32,000 nt of DNA from Methanobrevibacter sp. GTDB lineage: Archaea; Methanobacteriota; Methanobacteria; Methanobacteriales; Methanobacteriaceae. The notes beneath the pieces are model-generated. The model worked only from the letters and a program-made list of their open reading frames with translations. It was not told the DNA's origin and did no database searches. Each line of letters opens with the position of its first letter. Position 1 is the stretch's first letter. The stretch lies in the NCBI RefSeq assembly GCF_045120835.1, contig NZ_JBGVFE010000064.1, positions 9,131 through 41,130 on the forward strand, given 5' to 3'. Positions 1-30,661 of this stretch are shown here, piece after piece. A program made the position numbers and the translations under genes.

Positions 1-2031
1 GTTGCTTTATTGTCTGGAAGTGTTCCTTTAGCTAAAAAAACTGTTACTCTTACAGTTGATGGAAAATCATACACCAAAACCACTGACGATAATGGTATTG
101 TGTCACTCCCTATTAGTTTGCCTATTGGAAAATATACCATTTCATATACCAACAAGGCGGAATCCAAAATAAATTCAAAAACAGGCAGTACCACTATCGA
201 AGTCGTTGAAAAAGTCACTACCCTAAATGGATATGGATATTGGGTGTTCGGTTCAGACATGAAAAATGTAGACTTAAGTTCCCTTGCTTCTAAAGGAACT
301 ACTGATTTATTCCTGAATTACTACGCATTGGAAAAACATGGTCAAAGTGCTGTGGAATCATGGATTGCAAGTGCCAATACTTTAGGAATGAGAGTTCACA
401 TTTGGATGCAGGCATTTTATAACGATGGAGAGTGGGTAAATCCGGCAACAAACTCTAAAATTTGCACATCTAAGATAGCTGAAGCTAAAAAGTATGCTGC
501 AATTAAGGGAGTTGCAGGTGTTCACTTGGATTACTTGAGATATCCTGGAAATGCATATAAAACATCTGGAGGTACTAAAGCTATCAGCAATTTCGCAAAA
601 GATGTTGCAGAAGCGGTCCATGGCGTTAATTCTAAACTTATAGTTTCAGCTGCTTTAATGCCTGAAACCACAGATAATATTTATTATTATGGTCAGGACA
701 TGTCTGCGCTCAGTAAATATCTGGATGTTGTCATTCCAATGATTTATAAGGGAAATTATAACTCCGATACAAATTGGATCAAAACTACTACAAAATGGTT
801 TGTCGACAATTCCAATGGTGCCAAAGTTTGGGCAGGATTGCAAGGCTATGAATCTGATGATAATGTCGTGAAATTGTCCACATCTGAAATAACGAATGAT
901 GCACAGGCTGCACTTAACGGTAATGGTGCTGGAGTAATCGTATTCAGGTGGGGTCAAACCAATTTCGTAAATTTCAATTCATTGACTGCTAAATCTACAG
1001 CCTCATCCTCAACTGCGGCAACAGGTACTACAGCAGTTCCATCAGGCACTACAATATCCATTAAGAACATCATTGCAGGTGCAAATACCGTAAAATCATA
1101 TTATGCATCAATGGGTAAAGTTCCGGATACTGTAACTGCGGGAGGAATTACTTTTACAGCTTCTGAATTTTTATATGTTATGGCCAAGGCGGTTTATCAG
1201 TTGGGCAATTCCAACACTGCGGATATAGCTGTTCTTAAAGGAGTTTCAGCCCCTTCATCTCCATCCGGAGATAATATTTATTCAGAACAACTGTTGCAGG
1301 CGGATTATTTGACTGTAGCTAAAAATCTTGTTTCATTCATTGAAACAAACAATAGGGCTCCAAACTATTCCTCCTCTGCGGTAGGAAATATTATATTTGA
1401 TGAAGTGGTTGATGCATTTGCACGTACATTGTCATTTTACGGTACTGAGTCTAGATTATCCAATTACTGTACTATAACTTACATTGATTCAAGCAGCAGC
1501 AGTAGCAGTAGCAGCAGTAGCAGTTCCTCATTTTCAATAACCGGTGCGGGTTTAAATGAGAAGAACACTATAAAAGATTTAACTAATTACTATAAATCTT
1601 CTTCTAACTGTCAGGTTGGCGATTCATCTATTAAATCAATTGTTAACTCTTTAACTAGTGGTTTAACCAGTGATTCAGCAAAAGCTAAAGCAATATTCAA
1701 TTATGTGAGGGATAAAATTTCATACAGTTTCTACTATGATACAAAATATGGTGCAAAAAATACCTTATCTTATAAATCAGGTAATTGTGTGGATCAATCA
1801 CATTTATTGGTTGCAATGTTTAGAACTGCAGGCCTTGCGGCAAGATATGTTCATGGAGTATGTAAGTTCAATAGTGGAAGCACTTACGGACATGTTTGGA
1901 CTCAAGTATTAATCGATGGGGTATGGGTTTGTGCAGACCCGACCAGCAGCAGTAATTCTTTGGGAAAAATTAATAATTGGAAAACCAGTTCATTCACATT
2001 GAATGCAAGATATTGTAGTTTGCCGTTCTAG
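1..2031 (+). CDS. Surface (adhesin-like) protein, 5'-truncated by the window edge: GHL-type TIM-barrel-like region, 2 pseudomurein-binding-like repeats, poly-Ser linker and transglutaminase-like cysteine protease core
   Basis: The frame is open from nt 1, so the TTG at 10 is not a real start. GHL/DUF4015-like motifs are VHLDYLRYPG and VIPMIYKG (about 223-963). Two PMBR-like segments lie at about 1051-1210 and 1286-1443. A 14-Ser linker follows. The C-terminal transglutaminase-like triad is Cys 1786-1788 (GNCVDQSHL), His 1891-1893 (YGHVWTQV) and Asp 1936-1938 (CADPT). Confidence 0.8.
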   Translation, partial: VALLSGSVPLAKKTVTLTVDGKSYTKTTDDNGIVSLPISLPIGKYTISYTNKAESKINSKTGSTTIEVVEKVTTLNGYGYWVFGSDMKNVDLSSLASKGTTDLFLNYYALEKHGQSAVESWIASANTLGMRVHIWMQAFYNDGEWVNPATNSKICTSKIAEAKKYAAIKGVAGVHLDYLRYPGNAYKTSGGTKAISNFAKDVAEAVHGVNSKLIVSAALMPETTDNIYYYGQDMSALSKYLDVVIPMIYKGNYNSDTNWIKTTTKWFVDNSNGAKVWAGLQGYESDDNVVKLSTSEITNDAQAALNGNGAGVIVFRWGQTNFVNFNSLTAKSTASSSTAATGTTAVPSGTTISIKNIIAGANTVKSYYASMGKVPDTVTAGGITFTASEFLYVMAKAVYQLGNSNTADIAVLKGVSAPSSPSGDNIYSEQLLQADYLTVAKNLVSFIETNNRAPNYSSSAVGNIIFDEVVDAFARTLSFYGTESRLSNYCTITYIDSSSSSSSSSSSSSSFSITGAGLNEKNTIKDLTNYYKSSSNCQVGDSSIKSIVNSLTSGLTSDSAKAKAIFNYVRDKISYSFYYDTKYGAKNTLSYKSGNCVDQSHLLVAMFRTAGLAARYVHGVCKFNSGSTYGHVWTQVLIDGVWVCADPTSSSNSLGKINNWKTSSFTLNARYCSLPF
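1489..1530 (+). repeat. In-frame (AGC/AGT)n trinucleotide tract encoding 14 consecutive Ser
   Basis: The sequence reads tca agc agc agc agt agc agt agc agc agt agc agt tcc tca. It sits between the PMBR-like and transglutaminase-like parts. Confidence 0.95.
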
Positions 2032-18362: not shown

Positions 18363-18421
18363 GAAAAAAAATATCTGATAATTTAATATAAATCATATAA
18401 CAAATACTTTAAGTGATTATT

Positions 18422-19708
18422 ATGGCGTATGAAATTAAAAACAAAAAAAATATATCAACAATTGGTGTACATGCGGGTCAGGAAGAGGTAGATGAAACCG
18501 GTTCAAGGGTAACACCGATTTACCAGACAACTTCTTATGTATTCAACAATCCGGAACAGGCTGCAAACAGATTTGCACTTAAAGAGGGAGGAAACATTTA
18601 CACAAGATTAACAAACCCAACAACAGATGCATTTGAAAAGAGAATGGCTGCAATCGAAGGAGGTTCTGCGGCTTATGCTACCGCTTCAGGAATGTCAGCA
18701 ATATTTTATGCAATAATCAACCTGACTCAGGTCGGAGACAATATCGTATCTGCGGATAATCTGTATGGTGGAACCTATGAGCTTTTTGAAAATACTCTCG
18801 AAGAGTTGGGTCGAAGCGTTAGATTTGTAGACTCACAGTCTCCCGAAGAGTTTGAAGCGGCAATTGATGATAGGACAAAAGCGATTTATGTTGAATCAAT
18901 CGGAAATCCAAAATTGGATATTCCTGACTTTGATAAGATATCTGAAATTGCACATTCTCATGGCATCCCGTTGATTGCTGACAATACTGTAGGTATAGGT
19001 TCAGTTCGTCCGTTTGACCATGGTGCGGATATCATTTCATCATCTGCAACCAAATACATTGGAGGTCATGGAACCACTTTAGGTGGAATAATCATTGAAA
19101 AAGGTGACTTTGACTGGATGAACGGAAAATTCCCGACATTGTCAGAGCCTGATGAGACATATAATGGTCTGGTATTCGGTGAAACCTTTAGGGGTGTTGC
19201 ATTTACAACAAGAATAAGGGCAGTTGTCGGAAGGGATACCGGTGCAGTGCCGTCTCCATTCGGATCATTTTTGCTGTTGCAGGGCCTTGAAACATTAGGC
19301 TTAAGAATTGAAAGGCATGCAGAAAATGCTATGGCAGTTGCAAAACACCTTGAAGCTCATCCAAAAGTGGCTTGGGTAACCTATTCCGGTTTGGAGTCTT
19401 CACCAAATCATGAAGTGGCAAAAAAATATGCTGAAAAGGGTTATGGTGGAATCGTTTCATTTGGACTTAAGGCAGGTTATGACGGCGCCTTGAAATTCAT
19501 TGAAAATGTAGAATTGTTGTCTCTGCTTGCAAACATTGGAGATGCAAAATCTCTTGTAATACATCCGGCATCAACCACTCATTCTCAATTGTCTAAAGAG
19601 CAGCAGTTGTCTACTGGTGTGACTCCTGATTTGATTAGATTTTCAGTTGGTATTGAAGATATTGAAGATATTTTGGCTGATGTGGACCAGGCTTTAGATA
19701 AAATTTAA
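18422..19708 (+). CDS. metY: O-acetylhomoserine/O-acetylserine sulfhydrylase (Cys/Met-metabolism PLP enzyme)
   Basis: The PLP-Lys motif is SSATKYIGGHGT. Motifs NPTTDAFEKRMAAIEGG and IRFSVGIED are also present. I prefer the ATG at 18422 over the GTG at 18413. Confidence 0.9.
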   Translation: MAYEIKNKKNISTIGVHAGQEEVDETGSRVTPIYQTTSYVFNNPEQAANRFALKEGGNIYTRLTNPTTDAFEKRMAAIEGGSAAYATASGMSAIFYAIINLTQVGDNIVSADNLYGGTYELFENTLEELGRSVRFVDSQSPEEFEAAIDDRTKAIYVESIGNPKLDIPDFDKISEIAHSHGIPLIADNTVGIGSVRPFDHGADIISSSATKYIGGHGTTLGGIIIEKGDFDWMNGKFPTLSEPDETYNGLVFGETFRGVAFTTRIRAVVGRDTGAVPSPFGSFLLLQGLETLGLRIERHAENAMAVAKHLEAHPKVAWVTYSGLESSPNHEVAKKYAEKGYGGIVSFGLKAGYDGALKFIENVELLSLLANIGDAKSLVIHPASTTHSQLSKEQQLSTGVTPDLIRFSVGIEDIEDILADVDQALDKI

Positions 19709-20922: not shown

Positions 20923-21110
20923 CTCATTAATTTAATTTTATAGATTTGATTGTTAAAATAATTTTTTAATTTTTTATGTGATAATGCATTGATTTTAAGT
21001 TTGAGTAAAGTTTTTTCTTTAGACAAGTTAAATATTATCAAAGTATAAACATATCATTAAAGTCAGTTTGCGAATTGAACGAAAGATTAGTTAAATTAGC
21101 TGAAATAAAT

Positions 21111-21144
21111 TATTTATATTTGTTAATTCATATAGTTAATTAAC
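21111..21144 (+). promoter_or_regulatory. TATA-like box (TTTATATT, 21113-21120) followed by GTTAATT repeats and a 10-bp palindrome GTTAATTAAC (21135-21144)
   Basis: The element lies 10-45 nt upstream of the wHTH-FHA start. The GTTAA(A)TT core occurs at 21090, 21122 and 21135. Its position over the expected TSS fits an archaeal repressor operator, but the sequence background is AT-rich. Confidence 0.25.
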
Positions 21145-21949: not shown

Positions 21950-21980
21950 TTAGATTTTTTCAAATCTAATTGGTGGTTTC

Positions 21981-24900
21981 GTGGACTTTGATGATGCAAA
22001 ATACTTAATTGAAGAATTTTTCAATGGTAAGTTCGAAGTTAAAAAATTTCTTGGAGAAGGGTCATTTGCAAAGGTGTATTTGGTAAACCATAACTACTTA
22101 GATATCTTAATGGCCATGAAAATCATCAAAGAGCCCTTAAGTGCCGCCACCAACAAAAAAGATATTTTTCGAGAAGTTACTCTAGCTTGTCAATTGAGGC
22201 ATGAGAACATAATCAGCATTTATGATGCTGCAGAGATATCCGATTTTGAAGATGGGAAAAGTCATGCTTATTTTGTAATGGAATATGTTTCTGGAGGGGA
22301 TTTGGAGAGATATTTAAATTCATTCAGCGAGAACAACATATTCATGCCAATAGAACGGTGTTTGGATATAATCAGACAAATTTTAAGTGGTCTGAATACT
22401 TTGCATTCTGCAAATCCTCCTATTGTTCATCGGGATTTGAAACCGCATAATGTTTTGGTTAGTTTTAATGATTTTGGGAATATAATTATTAAGATTTCAG
22501 ATTTTGGATTTGCAAAGGAGATTACAACCAAAGTTTCCGACATTGATATTGCAGGTACAAGACCTTATATGGCTCCGGAACTATTTGAAAAGTCGGTGTC
22601 AACGAGAAGTGACATATATGCTGTTGGAGTCATTTTCTATCAGTTGTTGACAAATCATTTCCCCTATGATGTTGAAGGATATTCCAATTCCGAGTTAATG
22701 GATTTAAAACCATGGAGCAAAGAGCTAAAGGCTCCAAGCCACTATAATGGCCAGGTATTTGACGAGTTGGATAAAATTGTGTTGAAGTGCCTTGATGCCA
22801 ATCCATCTAACAGATACGGGGATGCAGATGACCTTTTGAGGGATGTTCAAAAAGCGATGGATAAATATAAATCTAAACGGATCGTATCTGAAATCAGCCT
22901 CGACAATGACTATCATGATGATTATCATGAATATATTGTCAATGATTCAATAAAAAAAGCTTTTCAACTCGCTAAATGTGAGAATAGGCTTGGTGAAGCT
23001 ATTGAAATATTGGAAAATGAGGTATTGGCTGATTATGACATTCGAAAGTGCTATTCCGAAACTCTTAGAATATGGAAATCCAAAAGGCCCGATTTGAAAT
23101 TAATTTCTAAGGCATTCACTATCAATCTTAAGGGAAATAATTATGACCTGTCATGCAGCTTACTAAAAGAGGCAATTGCTTACAATCCTTCCATTGGAAA
23201 TAAATATCGTCATTATTTAGATTTGTGGGAAATTTTCATTGATTTGCAAAAGCATGGAAGTTTATTTAAGGCAGTCGTTTTGCTTGAAAACTTAATGGAT
23301 TCAAGCAGTGAAATAAAACAGATTTATAAAGATATAATTCCAGTACTTAAAACATATTCGGTTGAAGACATTGTCCCGGAGGCAATTCGTCTGGTCAATT
23401 CAAACAATTTGTCTGCCGGAGCAAATCTGATGGAATTTGCGGTTGTTCTTAATTCCCAAATCAGGGACAGATATGCATACGGAATGTCATTGTGGAAGCA
23501 GAATATGAAGATGCATTTCAGGGCTTCAAATGAAATCAAGGAAAATACTATTGATTATGCAATCGATTTAGGAACAACGGATTCATTAATATCTTATTTT
23601 AATAAGGGAAAACCCATAATTATTAAAAATCATGTTACTGGAGATCTGTTTACTCCTTCTGCTGTTTTAATAGAGGGAGATGATGTGGAAGTGGGTGCAA
23701 ATGCAAAAGAGGCCATCTTGGAAAACAATCCCAATGCGGTATGTGAATTTAAACATGAAATGGGATTTTCCATTCCATTCAATTTTGAAAAATCATCAAG
23801 GGTAATGTTTCCCGAAGACCTTTCGGCAGAGGTTTTAAAAGATTTGAGAGTTTCGGTTCATGATGAGATGGGAATAAATATTGAACATGCTGTAATCTGT
23901 GTTCCTGCAAATTCAAATCCTATTAAAACAAGGGCGGTTAATGAGGCAGCTAAACTTGCAGGATTCAAATCACATGGGCTTATTTTAGAGCCTATTGCAG
24001 TTTCTCTTGCATATGATCTTAAAAAGAAAAATGGAATATGGATGATTTATGATTTGGGTGGGGGAACATTCAATGTTACTTTAATCCGGGAAAATGATGG
24101 CGAAATCGAAAAGGTTGCAACCGATGGGCTGGAAAATCTGGGAGGAAATGCGTTTGACTGGAGGATTGTAAACGACTTATTTTCGCCCAAAATTGCTCAT
24201 GATTTAAGTTTGGATGATTTAAGAAGGGACAATACAAAATACCTGAAAATATTCGCTCGACTAAAGAATGCTGCCGAAATTGCCAAAAAAGATTTGACAA
24301 ATCATGATGAAGCGAAGATAGAAATTGGGGATATTTTTGAAGGATATGATTTCAGATACACTTTAACCAGAGAGGAATTTGCACACATCATTGAACCGCT
24401 GATTAAATGCACTTTCAAGTTATCAAGAAATCTTCTCGATAAAAACATGCTGTCTGAAGGTGATATTGACAGGATCATTCTTGTTGGAGGCTCATCACTA
24501 AGTCCAGTTGTCCAGGACATGATTTTGAAAGAATTTGATATTGAAATTGAATCCAGCATAAATCCATTAACAGTCGTATCAAAAGGTGCGGCCATTTATG
24601 CGGGAAGCCTTGAAAAACCTCCAGTGGAAGTCCGAAGAAAACCTCTGTCCGTACTTATAAATAATGAAAATGGTGAAATTAAAGGCAGGGTATTTTCACA
24701 AGATTTATCATATTCCTTTTTGGGTTATTCCATAGAATTTATAAACCGTGAATCCTCATTAAAATTTCCTTTAAAAATTGATGGTTCATTCAAATTTAAA
24801 TCTGGTAAAAATGATTATGAAATAAATGTTTACAATGAAGATGAAATGGTCAAACTTGATGAAAAATCACCTCATGTATTAAAGGGGCAGAATATTTTCA

Positions 24901-25493
24901 TACCTTACTTCAATGAGTATTTTTCCCTGAAAGATGAATTAATTTTCAATGATTTGATTAGCCGCTACAATAATGCTCTTAAGGATATTGAATATCTGTG
25001 CGAATTCTTGAAATTTAATGAAACTGAACTTCAGCGGTATATTGAAAGTTTACTTGAAATAGCTAGAAGAGACAGTATCGCTTTAAATCATGCTGATATT
25101 TATATTGGCCATTTAGAAAGTACTGTAAACGATGCAAAAAGGAATTTGAGATTTTCGATTCTCATGGAAAATGTTTTAAATAAAATAGAACTCATTGAAG
25201 ATGAGGCACTGTTTGAAATCGGAAGCGTTGCAGAAATTGAAGAAAGCAAAAATTTGGAGGAATTGGAAGGATTTTACCGGGATATTGTTGAAAAATATGT
25301 CTTGTTAAATAAAAATGAGGTTATAATTGAATGCTTTTACAACTTAAAGTATGGGGGCATATTTACTAATAATAAAAAACATTTTGAGGAGTTGGTGGAT
25401 AAAGCGCATGATGCCATAAGCAATCATGATTACAGGAGTCTATTTAATATTGTAAATTTATTATATGAGCTGGACGAACGCACGGATAAATAA
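21981..25493 (+). CDS. Fusion protein: Hanks-type Ser/Thr protein kinase (N-terminal), helical linker, Hsp70/DnaK-like ATPase with a divergent substrate-binding-like C-terminus
   Basis: A GTG start lies 4 nt after GGTGG. No in-frame ATG occurs before the kinase Lys. Kinase motifs (about 22029-22850) are GEGSFAKVY, AMKII, HRDLKPHNVL, DFGFAKE and YMAPE. Hsp70 NBD motifs (about 23547-24608) are IDLGTTDS, ILEPIAVSLAY, YDLGGGTFNVTLI, ILVGGSSLSPVV and NPLTVVSKGAAIYA. Confidence 0.88.
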   Translation: MDFDDAKYLIEEFFNGKFEVKKFLGEGSFAKVYLVNHNYLDILMAMKIIKEPLSAATNKKDIFREVTLACQLRHENIISIYDAAEISDFEDGKSHAYFVMEYVSGGDLERYLNSFSENNIFMPIERCLDIIRQILSGLNTLHSANPPIVHRDLKPHNVLVSFNDFGNIIIKISDFGFAKEITTKVSDIDIAGTRPYMAPELFEKSVSTRSDIYAVGVIFYQLLTNHFPYDVEGYSNSELMDLKPWSKELKAPSHYNGQVFDELDKIVLKCLDANPSNRYGDADDLLRDVQKAMDKYKSKRIVSEISLDNDYHDDYHEYIVNDSIKKAFQLAKCENRLGEAIEILENEVLADYDIRKCYSETLRIWKSKRPDLKLISKAFTINLKGNNYDLSCSLLKEAIAYNPSIGNKYRHYLDLWEIFIDLQKHGSLFKAVVLLENLMDSSSEIKQIYKDIIPVLKTYSVEDIVPEAIRLVNSNNLSAGANLMEFAVVLNSQIRDRYAYGMSLWKQNMKMHFRASNEIKENTIDYAIDLGTTDSLISYFNKGKPIIIKNHVTGDLFTPSAVLIEGDDVEVGANAKEAILENNPNAVCEFKHEMGFSIPFNFEKSSRVMFPEDLSAEVLKDLRVSVHDEMGINIEHAVICVPANSNPIKTRAVNEAAKLAGFKSHGLILEPIAVSLAYDLKKKNGIWMIYDLGGGTFNVTLIRENDGEIEKVATDGLENLGGNAFDWRIVNDLFSPKIAHDLSLDDLRRDNTKYLKIFARLKNAAEIAKKDLTNHDEAKIEIGDIFEGYDFRYTLTREEFAHIIEPLIKCTFKLSRNLLDKNMLSEGDIDRIILVGGSSLSPVVQDMILKEFDIEIESSINPLTVVSKGAAIYAGSLEKPPVEVRRKPLSVLINNENGEIKGRVFSQDLSYSFLGYSIEFINRESSLKFPLKIDGSFKFKSGKNDYEINVYNEDEMVKLDEKSPHVLKGQNIFIPYFNEYFSLKDELIFNDLISRYNNALKDIEYLCEFLKFNETELQRYIESLLEIARRDSIALNHADIYIGHLESTVNDAKRNLRFSILMENVLNKIELIEDEALFEIGSVAEIEESKNLEELEGFYRDIVEKYVLLNKNEVIIECFYNLKYGGIFTNNKKHFEELVDKAHDAISNHDYRSLFNIVNLLYELDERTDK

Positions 25494-25551: not shown

Positions 25552-25683
25552 ATGAAAAAGCAAAATTCAGTAAATGGGACAGTAATACTGAAAAAAGATT
25601 CTTCAGATGGTTTTTTGGATTTTAACTATCCTGGAGAGCTTTCTGAAGTGTTGAGAATACTAAATAAAATAATGAATGAATAG
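25552..25683 (+). CDS. Candidate 43-aa micro-protein (not in the supplied ORF track)
   Basis: An ATG lies 7 nt after GGTGG. Translation gives MKKQNSVNGTVILKKDSSDGFLDFNYPGELSEVLRILNKIMNE. It is on the same strand, between the kinase-Hsp70 and HD-RyR genes. I recognise no homology. Confidence 0.35.
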   Translation: MKKQNSVNGTVILKKDSSDGFLDFNYPGELSEVLRILNKIMNE

Positions 25684-28168: not shown

Positions 28169-30661
28169 ATGGCTCAGGAAAGCACACAGGTTGAAAATCG
28201 AAATCGGGATTCTAATTTAAGTCATTATATTACTAATTTTTTTGACATGGTTGAATTGTATGATGATAAAATCGAATTTAAGGATAATCATGGAAAAACC
28301 CATTTTCATGATTATAAAGGTCTTTTAAAAGCATCAATTGATGTTTTTTTAGAATATGAATCATCATATACAGCTTATGAAGTTTATGAAACATTTTTAA
28401 TGATTTATCAAATCACTCCAGAGGACAAAAGTGAAGTTGATGAAAACAGTCCTAAAATTCTCATAAGTGAACCAAATAATCTTCTTGATTTGGTCAATAT
28501 CATGAGAAAATATGAAAAAAACACAGGCGATTTAATAGACAGGCAAAGGGATCATTTCATTCACTCCGTCAATGTATTCATTTTGGGTTTGGCGATTTAT
28601 GCTCAAAATGAAAATTATCGCAGATTCTTTAAAAACTATATTGTGGGCAATAAAAACTATACAAAATATTTCAGGGATAAAAAGAACAACAACGAATTTT
28701 CCCATGAGGAATTTTTATATCGTTGGGGAATTGCAGCTCTGTTCCATGATATAGGTTATCCATTTGAGATTATTGGAAAACAATTAAATAAGGTTATTGA
28801 TGAGACCGTTGAATCTATTTCCGTCAGTTATGATGTTAAGGCCAATATTGACTTTAGGGATTTCAATGAATTCAACTCCATTGTTAAATACTATCCATAT
28901 GATTATGCAGATAACTTTAGAAACACCTATGGACGTACAAAGATTCTGGATCTGTTCAAACCTACAGACATTATGGCTCATAAGATTGCTTTGGACTTTA
29001 ATCTTAATGATAATGAATTCAAACAGTTGGTTAAACATCTGAATGGATTTGTAAAAGACATGACTGCCAATGGCTTTATAGACCACGGATACTTCTCAGC
29101 CATTTTGTTATTGAATTCATATGGTAAACTGATTCAAAAGTATGCTAATAAAAATAATGATTTCTTCTTCTATCCTATCGTAGACAGTGCAACGGCTATT
29201 TTGCTACATAACTATTACAATAAAACTTTGCAGGATGAAGACAAACCATTCAATCTTGGAAAATTGGATCCGGAAGATTCCCCTATTTCATACCTTCTGA
29301 TATTATGTGATGAACTTCAGGAGTGGAACAGGCGTCCTTACGGTATTTTGGATAAACAGAAAAATCATGTAAATGATTTTGAAGTTGAAATATCCGACAA
29401 ATATTTCAATGTAACCTACATTTTAAAAAATGGGTCTATGGGTCTTGGCTTTGAAGAGGATAAGGAAAAGTTCATTAAAGATGTTTTAAATATTAGGAAA
29501 GTATTTTCCAGAAGTTTAACAATTAATCCCGAAGTTGTTTTAGATGATGTTCAAAGAGAAATCCTGATGGATAATATTCAATCTCCAGATGTGCTTTTGA
29601 GAAATATAGAGCGATTGGCTATAGAAGTTAATGAACAATACAATCAATCTCTCAAACAACAGCTAGAACAGGCCAAAAAGGATAATGATGATGAAAATAT
29701 CAAAAAATATGAGGAAAAGATAGCTCGGGCATGTGATTTTGAAGATTTGCCTGCAAGCTTAAAAATGTCAAATATCCGTCAGGCAAAGTCCATTCCAAAA
29801 AAATTGAGCATGATTGGTTGTGAAATAGCTCATAAAACTGAAGAGGAAATGGCGGATACAAAAGATTGGGAAGTTAAAGTAAAGGAATTTGAAGACAAAA
29901 TTGAAGACAATAGGCCTCCTATTGAAAAAGAAGAGGAATCCTTTGAGGATTTCAAAAAAAGGCAGGAACTGCTTGAACGGGATGGCAAGATTGTAAGGGT
30001 CATAAGATTTAGTTCAGACGATATTGATGATTTGGCCATTTATGAACATAGGGACTGGTGCAGGGAAAGAAGGGGTACCGGTTGGATTCATGATGAAGAC
30101 AATGATGACAGAATCAATAAAGTCAATCCAAATCTGGTTAAATGGGAAGAGCTTGATGAACCGACTAAACAGTTTGATAGGGATGCCATCAGTAACATTC
30201 CAAAACTTTTGGATAAAATTGGCCTAAAAGTTATCAGAAGCCGCCTCAGGTCATTGACTTATAAGATGAATCAGTTTTATGAGACAGGTAAATTGGACAG
30301 CAATTCCAGTGGTGAAGAAGATTTTAAGAGTTTGGATAAACATATTCAGTTCTCTAATTTAAAACAGGCAGACCACTTAGTTAAAATATTAAAACATAAG
30401 GGATATGAATTGGTTTCTATAAATGATTCCGGCGATCCTATTGATGGTTTTTCAAAGGATGAAATAAATCACTTTGCTAAAATGATGCATGAAAGTTGGT
30501 ATAAACTTAAACTCAATTTGGACCAGACTACAAGTAAAAATTTTGTTGAATGGGATAAGCTTAGGGAAGAGGTTAAGGAGGATAATAGGAATACCTTCAG
30601 ATATCTTCCTGAAATGTGTAAGGATGAGTATGTTGGTTTGAAAATCGTTAAGAACGAATAG
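28169..30661 (+). CDS. HD-domain protein with C-terminal RyR-like repeats, paralogue 2 (with a charged insertion and a degenerate last repeat)
   Basis: It is collinear with paralogue 1 through QRDHFIHSVNVFILGLAIY, LFHDIGYPFE, IDHGYFSAILLLNSYG, FFFYPIVDSATAILLHNYY and LLILCDELQEWNRRP. It also shares MSNIRQAKSIPKKLSMIGCE and LAIYEHRDWCRERRGTGW. Confidence 0.8.
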   Translation: MAQESTQVENRNRDSNLSHYITNFFDMVELYDDKIEFKDNHGKTHFHDYKGLLKASIDVFLEYESSYTAYEVYETFLMIYQITPEDKSEVDENSPKILISEPNNLLDLVNIMRKYEKNTGDLIDRQRDHFIHSVNVFILGLAIYAQNENYRRFFKNYIVGNKNYTKYFRDKKNNNEFSHEEFLYRWGIAALFHDIGYPFEIIGKQLNKVIDETVESISVSYDVKANIDFRDFNEFNSIVKYYPYDYADNFRNTYGRTKILDLFKPTDIMAHKIALDFNLNDNEFKQLVKHLNGFVKDMTANGFIDHGYFSAILLLNSYGKLIQKYANKNNDFFFYPIVDSATAILLHNYYNKTLQDEDKPFNLGKLDPEDSPISYLLILCDELQEWNRRPYGILDKQKNHVNDFEVEISDKYFNVTYILKNGSMGLGFEEDKEKFIKDVLNIRKVFSRSLTINPEVVLDDVQREILMDNIQSPDVLLRNIERLAIEVNEQYNQSLKQQLEQAKKDNDDENIKKYEEKIARACDFEDLPASLKMSNIRQAKSIPKKLSMIGCEIAHKTEEEMADTKDWEVKVKEFEDKIEDNRPPIEKEEESFEDFKKRQELLERDGKIVRVIRFSSDDIDDLAIYEHRDWCRERRGTGWIHDEDNDDRINKVNPNLVKWEELDEPTKQFDRDAISNIPKLLDKIGLKVIRSRLRSLTYKMNQFYETGKLDSNSSGEEDFKSLDKHIQFSNLKQADHLVKILKHKGYELVSINDSGDPIDGFSKDEINHFAKMMHESWYKLKLNLDQTTSKNFVEWDKLREEVKEDNRNTFRYLPEMCKDEYVGLKIVKNE

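Follow-up and report, generated by a model that had tools for sequence, protein, structure and literature searches.

A Hanks-type kinase fused to an Hsp70-type ATPase without a detectable peptide-binding domain is the centre of a conserved gene cassette in Methanobrevibacter

Many FHA domains prefer the phosphothreonine motif pT-x-x-I/L/V, and the proteins GarA and OdhI are switched by an N-terminal phosphothreonine that binds their own FHA domain. Archaeal Hanks-type kinases that phosphorylate FHA-containing transcription regulators have been described in Sulfolobus (ArnA/ArnB with ArnC/ArnD, and ST1565/ST0829 of S. tokodaii; PMC5007285), and Ser/Thr phosphorylation in methanogens is essentially unstudied, a single study being cited in that 2016 review (PMC5007285). 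The architecture 'Kinase + HSP70' was tabulated for Pirellula sp. (gi|32474490) in 2005 (Krupa & Srinivasan, PMC1262709). The present study concerns a gene joining these two domains in a 32,000-nucleotide stretch of DNA from Methanobrevibacter sp. (assembly GCF_045120835.1, contig NZ_JBGVFE010000064.1, positions 9,131 to 41,130 of the forward strand), hereafter the window, in whose coordinates positions are given. A first-pass annotation made from the sequence alone had singled out this gene as an unusual architecture. That description holds to the extent that literature searches found no functional characterisation either of the kinase/Hsp70 architecture or of the family of ~830-residue Hsp70-like proteins treated below; it does not hold for the combination of domains as such, which was listed for Pirellula, has arisen independently in bacteria in both domain orders, and is annotated by NCBI. 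The domain combination is already known at catalogue level, and the database name of the family is 'Hsp70 family protein'. To the extent of our searches, the new elements are the loss of the substrate-binding beta domain (SBDbeta), the single origin of the fusion from a kinase/Hsp70-like operon, the cassette with an FHA protein and a micro-protein in which it lies, and a wider module of kinase, Hsp70-like, GrpE-like, AAA+ and PPP phosphatase proteins.

The fusion gene is one open reading frame (ORF; 21981..25493, forward strand) of 1170 residues with a GTG start, and highly significant matches to both Pkinase and HSP70 lie within it (Table 1), in agreement with the single polypeptide originally proposed. 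The start position is kept in 29 related loci, as GTG in 16, TTG in 7 and ATG in 6, each preceded by GGTG(G/A), which indicates that the initial choice of a GTG codon behind GGTGG was right. All catalytic signatures of the kinase are intact (the GEGSFAKVY G-loop, AMK, HRDLKPHN, DFG and APE), with a Pfam Pkinase score of 186.3 bits against a gathering cut-off of 31.7 over residues 18-283. In an alignment of 25 diverse homologues with 48-71% identity to the window protein, G25/G27, K47, E65, D152, K154, D174-F-G, A198-P-E200, D211 and R278 are invariant, and N157, the last residue of the H150-R-D152-L-K154-x-x-N157 motif present in the window protein, is conserved in at least 90% of the sequences. 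The activation-loop residue T182 is also invariant, and the residue three positions after it is mostly hydrophobic (I, V, L or F), being Ser in 2 of the 25. The nearest solved structures are StkP, PknB of S. aureus and M. tuberculosis, and ULK1 (E ~1e-30).

The roughly 220 helical residues that had been noted between the two enzymatic domains resolve, in an AlphaFold2 (AF2) model of residues 290-525 built from an 87-sequence alignment (predicted local distance difference test score, pLDDT, 85.6), into a disordered linker followed by twelve helices. The top Foldseek matches of this middle domain in the PDB are all TPR proteins (MamA, NlpI, KLC, SycD, Hip and SGT), none of them significant (E >=1.2); the domain is predicted to be an alpha-alpha helical repeat and is called here TPR-like. 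In unfused relatives, it stays with the kinase half.

The nucleotide-binding domain (NBD) carries the five motifs of the Hsp70 ATPase (DLGTT, EPIAVSLAY, DLGGGTF, LVGGSS and NP..V..GAAI), as the first-pass annotation had reported, and D529, G531, T532, K591, E670, D691, G693, T696 and G836-G837 are invariant in the same alignment, no other part of the protein being as well conserved as the NBD. The Pfam HSP70 match (residues 528-878) covers profile positions 4-376 of 599, that is, the NBD only. The nearest solved NBDs are those of BiP and DnaK (E ~1e-50), with alignments that end at about residues 877-897 and never extend into the substrate-binding domain (SBD). Likewise, the NCBIfam models for DnaK (221 bits against a cut-off of 648) and HscA (207 against 709) match only the NBD. 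An actin/MreB-like cytoskeletal role was set aside, since the Pfam MreB match (E 7e-18) is far weaker than that to HSP70 and is explained by the fold that the two families share. Both enzymatic domains look catalytically competent and under purifying selection, judging from these residue patterns, and the protein can be described as a genuine multidomain enzyme of rumen and gut Methanobrevibacter with, very probably, a signalling function.

When 5.8 billion proteins were searched, 113 protein clusters, from NCBI, ENA, JGI and Logan assemblies, proved to share the fusion architecture at 44-100% identity; beyond them the score falls from 1040 to 250 bits and only kinase matches are left. NCBI already has the window protein, at 100% identity, as 'Hsp70 family protein [Methanobrevibacter sp.]'. 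The survey of taxonomic spread suggested by the first-pass annotation, carried out on GTDB contigs with one genome per species, found the full-length gene in ~27 species-representative genomes, all of them Methanobrevibacter and mostly rumen or gut metagenome-assembled genomes (MAGs). The homologue P0032 belongs to M. millerae. Conservation is unbroken across the junction of the kinase and Hsp70 halves in the 25-homologue alignment. On sequence grounds, the fusion is genuine and conserved, as had been argued from its start site, and its architecture and evolutionary history can be taken as secure.

Three individual copies deserve mention. The MAG CAMVPN01 holds two copies of the fusion (L023:6001-9507 and L033:3122-6679), with 71% and 58% identity to the window protein; the first is frameshifted near residue 783, either as a pseudogene or through an assembly error, and NCBI lists a 783-residue protein for it (P0098). 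The most divergent fused homologue, P0111 (L001:10001-13897; 1298 residues), contains a low-complexity insertion of ~60 residues with a repeated NSA(S/D)VG(E/D) unit. This insertion sits exactly at the junction between the TPR-like domain and the NBD (alignment columns 560-615), and fits the notion that the junction is a flexible linker left by gene fusion.

The tail beyond the NBD had been read as a divergent SBD with its lid. It is beta-rich and then helical in the AF2 model of residues 879-1170 (pLDDT 92.8), as stated, but the beta part turned out to be a family-specific insert, and the true SBDbeta is the part that has been deleted. Relatives of the Hsp70 part were collected by an exhaustive hidden Markov model (HMM) search of 1.84 billion representative proteins together with local domain mapping, and the top non-self matches form a group of ~830-residue 'Hsp70 family proteins' from bacteria, Methanosphaera and Methanobrevibacter (for example WP_112123259.1 of Methanosphaera sp. 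BMS, P0131, P0144 and L035). In an alignment of 44 members, the NBD of this family is followed by a beta-insert, an SBDbeta and a helical C-domain, and the SBDbeta matches the SBD of E. coli DnaK with a probability of 96.7% (hhalign, E 3.6e-10). When the window-family tail was compared with the post-NBD region of these proteins, the two matched with a probability of 99.5% (E 4e-22) and the SBDbeta columns were skipped: the beta-sandwich of the window protein falls on the insert between NBD and SBDbeta, and its helical bundle on the helical C-domain.

Consistent results were obtained with HMMs of the separate domains. Matches to the beta-insert and the helical domain occur in the fused proteins (E 1e-5 to 1e-16 for the latter). 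The SBDbeta HMM detects the DnaK SBD (1e-13), three unfused relatives (1e-24 to 1e-27), archaeal paralogues, six other kinase/Hsp70 fusions and every full-length (~830-940 residues) bacterial member tested; a shorter paralogue of 606 residues (L037a) was not detected by it, and among the 113 fused Methanobrevibacter proteins none gave a significant match, the best E being 0.85 with filters off. Structure comparison pointed in the same direction. Foldseek returned no PDB match at E <=1e-3 for the C-terminal model; the top matches of the beta-sandwich were FN3/Ig-like sandwiches (E 0.01-0.1), and the DnaK SBD (1dkx) came 32nd, with a probability of 0.15 and TM values of 0.14-0.18. No significant similarity to the DnaK lid (SBDalpha) was obtained for the helical bundle with either Foldseek or hhalign. 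A full-length profile alignment to DnaK does run past the NBD in plausible register (PLSV/PLSL, KSP/KSL); however, the tail-only profile is not significant against the DnaK SBD (hhalign, P 0.2-0.4), so this apparent extension is no evidence for an SBD. The interpretation of the tail as SBD plus lid was therefore not upheld.

Two further features of the Hsp70 cycle were inspected in a profile alignment with the E. coli DnaK sequence. The DnaK segment VLLLDV, the hydrophobic linker between NBD and SBD, has no counterpart in the fusion protein, which has EKPPVEVRRK instead, and DnaK R167/N170/T173, the residues that contact the J-domain, align to G/L/I. Judged from these profile comparisons, the peptide-binding SBDbeta has been lost in the fused lineage, leaving an Hsp70 engine without its client-binding domain. 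The ~830-residue family is the direct parent family of the Hsp70 part and, since SBDbeta is deleted in all fused proteins, the window protein is a derived, truncated offshoot of that family and not a typical member.

The origin of the fusion can be read from three relatives (L088, L089 and L032) in which the halves are encoded by adjacent genes, a kinase with TPR-like domain of 520-536 residues followed by an Hsp70-like protein of 703-818 residues. The boundary between these genes falls exactly at the junction of the TPR-like domain and the NBD of the fusion. The splits are considered genuine because of the stop codons, ribosome-binding sites (RBSs) or change of frame at the boundary: five stop codons and an RBS of its own in L089, a TAG followed by a GGTGAGGTG RBS in L088, and a second gene in a different reading frame in L032. 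Neighbour-joining trees of the kinase and of the NBD, built without bootstrap, agree in placing the fused proteins in one clade, with the split forms basal, then an archaeal paralogous system, then bacteria. This topology indicates a single fusion of adjacent kinase-TPR-like and Hsp70-like genes, which would have coincided with the loss of SBDbeta. At the split locus L089 (L089:10499-15097), the Hsp70-like gene is followed by that of a 1532-residue DUF4062 (TIR-like)-AAA_22-WD40 protein of the STAND type, typical of conflict systems.

The association of this kinase with Hsp70-like proteins is older than the fusion and has recurred. In bacterial loci L035, L037 and L038, from Verrucomicrobiota, Acidobacteriaceae and an unclassified bacterial MAG, a closely related kinase lies upstream of one or two ~830-residue Hsp70-like genes, in one case with an intervening Sel1-repeat protein, and in a gut metagenome locus (L099) a kinase-AAA fusion gene directly follows the Hsp70-like gene. 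In a Lentisphaeria locus, the related kinase lies behind an AAA+/M41 protein, with no Hsp70-like gene in the stretch retrieved. Independent fusions were found in the order kinase-NBD-SBDbeta (P0159, P0191) and in the order NBD-SBDbeta...kinase (P0231, P0244, P0262, P0265). Among them, P0191 (L093:1249-5051) is a 928-residue Zn-ribbon-kinase-NBD-SBDbeta protein with the gene of a DnaJ+TPR protein next to it, and P0231 (L092:7001-10804) a 1267-residue NBD-SBDbeta-kinase protein with a faint TPR match between its domains. The frequency of kinase adjacency in the wider ~830-residue family, 2 of ~4 loci with usable flanks, is poorly sampled, given that the metagenome scan with the alignment of this family used generic Hsp70 patterns, so that 73 of 80 loci were ordinary DnaK and only L094-L100 were informative; the bacterial loci from the genome scan were picked through kinase peptide patterns and are unfit for such an estimate.

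A paralogous multi-gene system was observed on Methanobrevibacter-type metagenome contigs (L091:1-11755 and L095:1621-11297; compare L090 of Methanosphaera sp. BMS, CP014213). Its genes encode, in this order, a TIR protein (L091 only), a ClpB-like double-AAA+ protein, a 585-residue kinase with TPR-like domain, a 545-residue protein of unknown kind, a 203-residue weakly GrpE-like protein, an 838-residue Hsp70-like protein with SBDbeta, a small TPR protein and a Metallophos (PPP) phosphatase. Its appearance is that of an undescribed system under kinase control, either chaperone-like or of conflict type. Weak GrpE matches lie directly upstream of ~830-residue Hsp70-like genes in both L096 (7450-7983, E 0.001) and L091 (7364-7975, E 0.0096), which suggests that this family may own a divergent nucleotide-exchange factor; no GrpE-like gene accompanies the fused form. 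Taken together, the repeated independent fusion and co-location point to a broad uncharacterised module of kinases, TPR or Sel1 repeats and ~830-residue Hsp70-like proteins.

In Methanobrevibacter, the fusion gene is the centre of a conserved cassette, which comprises a gene for an FHA protein with a putative winged helix-turn-helix (wHTH), the fusion gene, a micro-protein gene and then, variably, genes for a PPP phosphatase and RyR-domain proteins. The FHA-protein gene is directly upstream and co-oriented in 32 of 32 fused loci having upstream DNA, with gaps of 6-40 nt, and its products range from 256 to 302 residues. An FHA domain was found in 18 of 18 homologues, with PDB matches that include Chk2, Rad53 and Sulfolobus ArnA (5a8i, E 1.4e-3), and the phosphothreonine-binding residues of the window protein lie in G176-R177, S204-K-P-H207 and N226-G227-T228, of which all but S204 are invariant among the 18. 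The N-terminal part matches HTH_20 in 14 of 18 homologues (best E 1e-3), HxlR in 10 and HTH_5 in 6, and its profile matched in the PDB only proteins of ArsR/HxlR type (HlyU, YtcD and an ArsR-family protein) at sub-threshold E of 0.4-1.8, evidence for an ArsR/HxlR-like wHTH that is weak but concordant. The protein has an N-terminal K-T-V-I-L-D motif, whose T6 is conserved in at least 90% of homologues. Upstream of this gene, in a divergent intergenic region of 232 nt, the window has only one inverted repeat, AT-rich and imperfect (21094..21128), with 17-nt arms that are 76% complementary; other loci lack it and have the end of a SIS-domain gene 40-60 nt in front of the FHA gene.

Downstream of the fusion gene, homologues of the unannotated micro-protein (40-68 residues) occupy the same position in 29 of 29 fused loci with downstream DNA, and in 0 of the 3 split loci. 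They share the motif xTVILNKxxSDGFLDF...EL..V..IL, with the variants x-T-V/I-I/V-L/I-N/K, in which the Thr is invariant and the residue at +3 is L or I. A PPP/Metallophos phosphatase of ~257 residues with DLHGN and GDLIHG motifs is encoded between the micro-ORF and the RyR genes in 16 of the 29 loci (e.g. L009:9691-10464), and one or two RyR-domain proteins of 750-830 residues follow in 23 of the 29. In the two RyR proteins of the window, the large unassigned N-terminal region contains an H...HD-like motif (FIHS...LFHDIGYP; Pfam HD, weak at E 0.2). Over its first 243 residues, RyR protein 1 shares 42% identity with a segment of a TIR+RyR fusion from Methanosphaera sp. BMS (L090), an identity that would link the RyR protein family to TIR effectors.

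Table 1. Positions, in window coordinates, of the parts of the fusion gene, of the other cassette genes and of one further gene.
Feature	Position	Strand	Evidence and remarks
RBS GGTGG and start codon of the fusion gene	21972-21976 (RBS), 21981-21983 (GTG)	+	Sequence read; RBS 5 nt before start
Hanks-type Ser/Thr kinase domain	22032..22829, aa 18-283	+	Pfam Pkinase E 9e-55
Disordered variable linker	22848..22928, aa 290-316	+	AF2 pLDDT <50; alignment columns variable, indel-rich
TPR-like alpha-alpha helical-repeat domain, 12 helices (predicted)	22944..23498, aa 322-506	+	AF2 pLDDT >90
Hsp70-type NBD (ATPase)	23538..24617, aa 520-879	+	Pfam HSP70 E 5e-67
Family-specific beta-sandwich insert domain	24645..24926, aa 889-982	+	AF2 pLDDT >90, ~10 strands
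C-terminal helical-bundle domain	24945..25472, aa 989-1164	+	AF2, 8 helices, pLDDT >90; ends in LYELDER, a motif conserved at the end of this domain
FHA protein with putative wHTH, 264 aa	21155..21949	+	wHTH ~aa 20-115; FHA aa 150-264, Pfam FHA E 5.5e-9
Micro-protein gene, 43 aa, MKKQNSVNGTVILKKDSSDGFLDFNYPGELSEVLRILNKIMNE	25552..25683	+	ORF with its own GGTGG RBS; unannotated
RyR-domain protein 1, 751 aa	25797..28052	+	Pfam RyR E 1.8e-30; two RyR domains
RyR-domain protein 2, 830 aa, paralogue of protein 1	28169..30661	+	Pfam RyR E 7.6e-12
673-aa protein with pseudomurein-binding repeat, transglutaminase-like core and putative glycosyl-hydrolase	10..2031	+	Cell-wall-associated; Methanobacteriales-typical

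From this arrangement, we tentatively propose that an ATPase-gated kinase signals through phosphothreonine and the FHA domain to a transcription factor, a model to which we give somewhat less than an even chance. ATP binding and hydrolysis by the NBD would no longer drive client capture and would instead act as a conformational or assembly switch that gates the kinase tethered to it, with an interaction surface perhaps provided by the TPR-like and helical domains. The active kinase would autophosphorylate its activation loop at T182, and might also phosphorylate the Thr of the T-V-I-L motif in the N-terminus of the FHA protein (T6) and in the micro-protein (T11). The FHA domain could then read phosphothreonine either on its own chain, in the manner of GarA and OdhI, or on the kinase, and this reading would alter DNA binding by the ArsR-like wHTH and thereby transcription. 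The PPP phosphatase, where present, would reset the state, and the RyR-domain proteins would be candidate targets or effectors.

The proposed path is graded only as tentative because the likeness of the micro-protein to the FHA-protein N-terminus in their T-V-I-L motifs, which was noticed post hoc, is without statistical support (P 0.06; 15 of 100 column shuffles scored as high). Several other observations weigh against it. That the NBD regulates the kinase at all, and by what route, is purely inferred. The wHTH assignment consists of many weak matches, none significant on its own, and the FHA position that canonically holds the phosphate-binding Ser (S204 in the window protein) is S, G, A or D in different homologues. 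The reset step of the model falls to a phosphatase that the window lacks, tblastn having found no trace of it there, so that the window cassette is a variant without a dedicated phosphatase. A search upstream of the cassette revealed no conserved operator, the upstream regions being not homologous between chromosomal contexts. Finally, the TIR, ClpB-like AAA+ and STAND-WD40 neighbours in related systems suggest a conflict context.

The last point leads to the alternative that survives best, although we regard it as unlikely: the module would belong to a conflict (antiviral or abortive-infection) system, sensing infection-associated proteins or proteotoxic perturbation and triggering RyR/HD-like effectors (TIR in the paralogous systems), with the kinase as a Stk2- or PD-T4-6-like effector or amplifier and the FHA protein as an adaptor. 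The kinase domain scores strongly on PADLOC kinase models (mad6, 1e-63; PD-T4-6, 3e-57; MkoA), but these matches in PADLOC-DB v2 are to the generic kinase fold only, and the Hsp70-like part, the FHA and RyR proteins and the bacterial relatives have none. In its favour are the composition of the paralogous L091/L095 system, in which kinase-TPR-like and Hsp70-like proteins are accompanied by TIR (L091), a ClpB-like AAA+ protein and a PPP phosphatase, the resemblance of the RyR protein 1 N-terminus to the middle part of the Methanosphaera TIR+RyR protein, and the STAND-type neighbour of the split locus L089. Hsp70-like ATPases also occur in other predicted conflict systems, namely the DO-GTPase systems (PMC7159879) and CoCoNuT, with CnuD (PMC11090510).

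Rapid divergence of the cassette might be read in the same way. The Cys/Met-metabolism pyridoxal phosphate (PLP) enzyme encoded nearby (18413..19708) is 92-95% identical between the window and L006, L005 and L025, whereas the same genomes show 51-54% identity for the fusion, 66-77% for the FHA protein and 70-83% for RyR protein 1; in L006, the PLP enzyme reaches 95%, the fusion 54%, FHA 66% and RyR protein 1 70%. Divergence of the cassette is thus much faster than that of the housekeeping gene next to it. The cassette is also found in at least three different chromosomal contexts. Nevertheless, in several species it is syntenic beside the same housekeeping genes, and the window itself is an archaeal housekeeping region (aIF2-gamma, aIF5B, RpoE/Rpb7, ribosomal proteins, tRNA-intron endonuclease and a pseudomurein-binding repeat protein) in which neither a TIR protein nor a nuclease nor any other known kind of effector could be recognised. 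An FHA protein that binds DNA is more usual in regulation than in immunity, a scan of viral contigs turned up no relatives, and literature searches brought to light no experiments showing that such a system defends its host. Scans of the window for tRNAs and against Rfam gave no match, and the cell-wall enzyme at its beginning (Table 1) is unrelated to the fusion.

The first-pass annotation had favoured a chaperone-type client sensor, in which unfolded or specific client peptides bound by a divergent SBD plus lid would control the kinase allosterically; the pairing of BiP with IRE1 and PERK would be a counterpart. The relatives of the fusion lend this idea some substance: the parent ~830-residue family and the unfused relatives carry a real SBDbeta, GrpE-like proteins are encoded upstream of the Hsp70-like gene in L096 and L091, and a DnaJ+TPR protein follows the bacterial fusion P0191. 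On this evidence, client binding may well have been how the ancestral module operated. For the window protein, where the continuing register of the full-length alignment with DnaK was the remaining point in its favour, the idea is largely refuted and is held to be quite improbable, since SBDbeta is gone from the fused clade while being present in its nearest unfused relatives and in the parent family, the tail bears no significant likeness to the DnaK SBD (with a Foldseek TM <0.2 for 1dkx), and neither the hydrophobic interdomain linker nor the J-domain contact residues are conserved. Moreover, no DnaJ or GrpE domain is encoded in the 32-kb window, which bears out the earlier remark that this is not a canonical dnaK operon gene.

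The same losses could mean that the canonical Hsp70 cycle has been dismantled and that the NBD survives as a pseudo-ATPase, either an inactive relic or a purely structural scaffold, which would serve kinase oligomerisation or localisation without any part for ATP turnover; some Hsp70-like domains, such as CoCoNuT CnuD, are indeed predicted to be poor ATP hydrolysers (PMC11090510). However, D529, T532, K591, E670, D691, T696 and the GG of LVGGS are all invariant at 48-71% identity and conservation within the protein is highest in the NBD, a pattern that is hard to explain without a catalytic function and makes such a relic very improbable. As for the possibility that two genes were joined artificially through faulty assembly, a frameshift or wrong ORF calling, which the unfused versions in related organisms and the frameshifted MAG copy L023 might bring to mind, it is refuted, with a negligible residual probability, by the uninterrupted frame in 113 clusters of independent assemblies and ~27 species-level genomes, by the conserved start site and by the continuous conservation across the junction.

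Returning to the proposal of an ATPase-gated kinase with FHA-dependent output, the fusion amounts to a natural experiment, in which an Hsp70 ATPase with every catalytic residue, minus SBDbeta, the allosteric linker and the J-domain contacts, has been joined to a kinase; a role for the ATPase cycle in it, once shown, would reveal the reuse of the Hsp70 engine as a signalling switch. In a broader and more speculative version, which we consider doubtful as a whole, the window gene would be one streamlined branch of a widespread undescribed signalling or immune module, the neighbours of which include GrpE-like, ClpB-like, PPP and TIR proteins. In this module, an Hsp70-like ATPase would monitor aberrant or foreign proteins with a divergent GrpE-like exchange factor and an AAA+ (ClpB-like or other) partner and relay the signal, through a dedicated Hanks kinase, the PPP phosphatase and FHA, to transcription or to TIR and RyR/HD-like effectors; the fused clade would have dropped the client domain and kept the ATPase as a built-in kinase switch. 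If true, the module would be a prokaryotic counterpart of Hsp70-guarded stress or immune kinases such as BiP-IRE1/PERK. In the rumen and the human gut, Methanobrevibacter dominates methane production and, with methanogen Ser/Thr phospho-signalling almost unstudied, a conserved cassette of kinase and FHA transcription factor would give a concrete entry into its regulation.

Compared with canonical Hsp70 proteins (DnaK, BiP, HscA), the fusion protein has a homologous ATPase domain with all nucleotide-binding and catalytic residues, but differs in having no SBDbeta, hydrophobic linker or conserved J-domain contacts, in the added beta-sandwich insert and kinase, in scores far below the NCBIfam cut-offs for DnaK and HscA, and in lying away from dnaJ and grpE. 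NBD, beta-insert and helical C-domain are common to it and the ~830-residue family, whose genes often have those of a closely related Hanks kinase, PPP phosphatase, AAA+ ATPase and GrpE-like protein beside them; unlike these mostly stand-alone proteins, which keep SBDbeta, the fusion protein has none and is joined to a kinase and a TPR-like domain. The Pirellula protein, known from the 2005 listing, and the bacterial fusions P0159, P0191, P0231, P0244, P0262 and P0265 likewise carry a Hanks kinase together with an Hsp70 NBD on a single polypeptide. However, the six bacterial fusions are independent, have another domain order or no TPR-like spacer, keep SBDbeta, and none is archaeal.

On the signalling side, the likeness is to the bacterial kinases StkP and PknB with their FHA partners (PknB/PknG with GarA in M. 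tuberculosis, OdhI in Corynebacterium), these kinases being the nearest solved structures and the FHA gene having the kinase gene as its neighbour; with its conserved Thr motif at the N-terminus, the FHA protein is reminiscent of the intramolecular switch of GarA and OdhI. In contrast to StkP and PknB, the fusion has no transmembrane or PASTA sensor, its accessory part is an Hsp70-type ATPase, and the FHA partner has a putative wHTH. The pairing of an archaeal kinase with an FHA protein is shared with the Sulfolobus Arn system, ArnA being among the best PDB matches of the window FHA domain, but the Arn and ST1565 systems are crenarchaeal, have a zinc-finger or vWA partner and contain no Hsp70-like domain. 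Finally, the use of an Hsp70-type ATPase as a regulatory or thresholding module is shared with the DO-GTPase/tubulin/Hsp70 systems (Kaur et al., 2020, PMC7159879) and with CoCoNuT CnuD (Bell et al., 2024, PMC11090510), and its coupling to signalling enzymes with eukaryotic BiP-IRE1/PERK. These are comparisons of concept, with homology shown for the NBD at most: the partners in those systems are GTPases, McrBC and stress kinases of the endoplasmic reticulum, and in none of them is the ATPase fused to a Hanks kinase with an FHA output.

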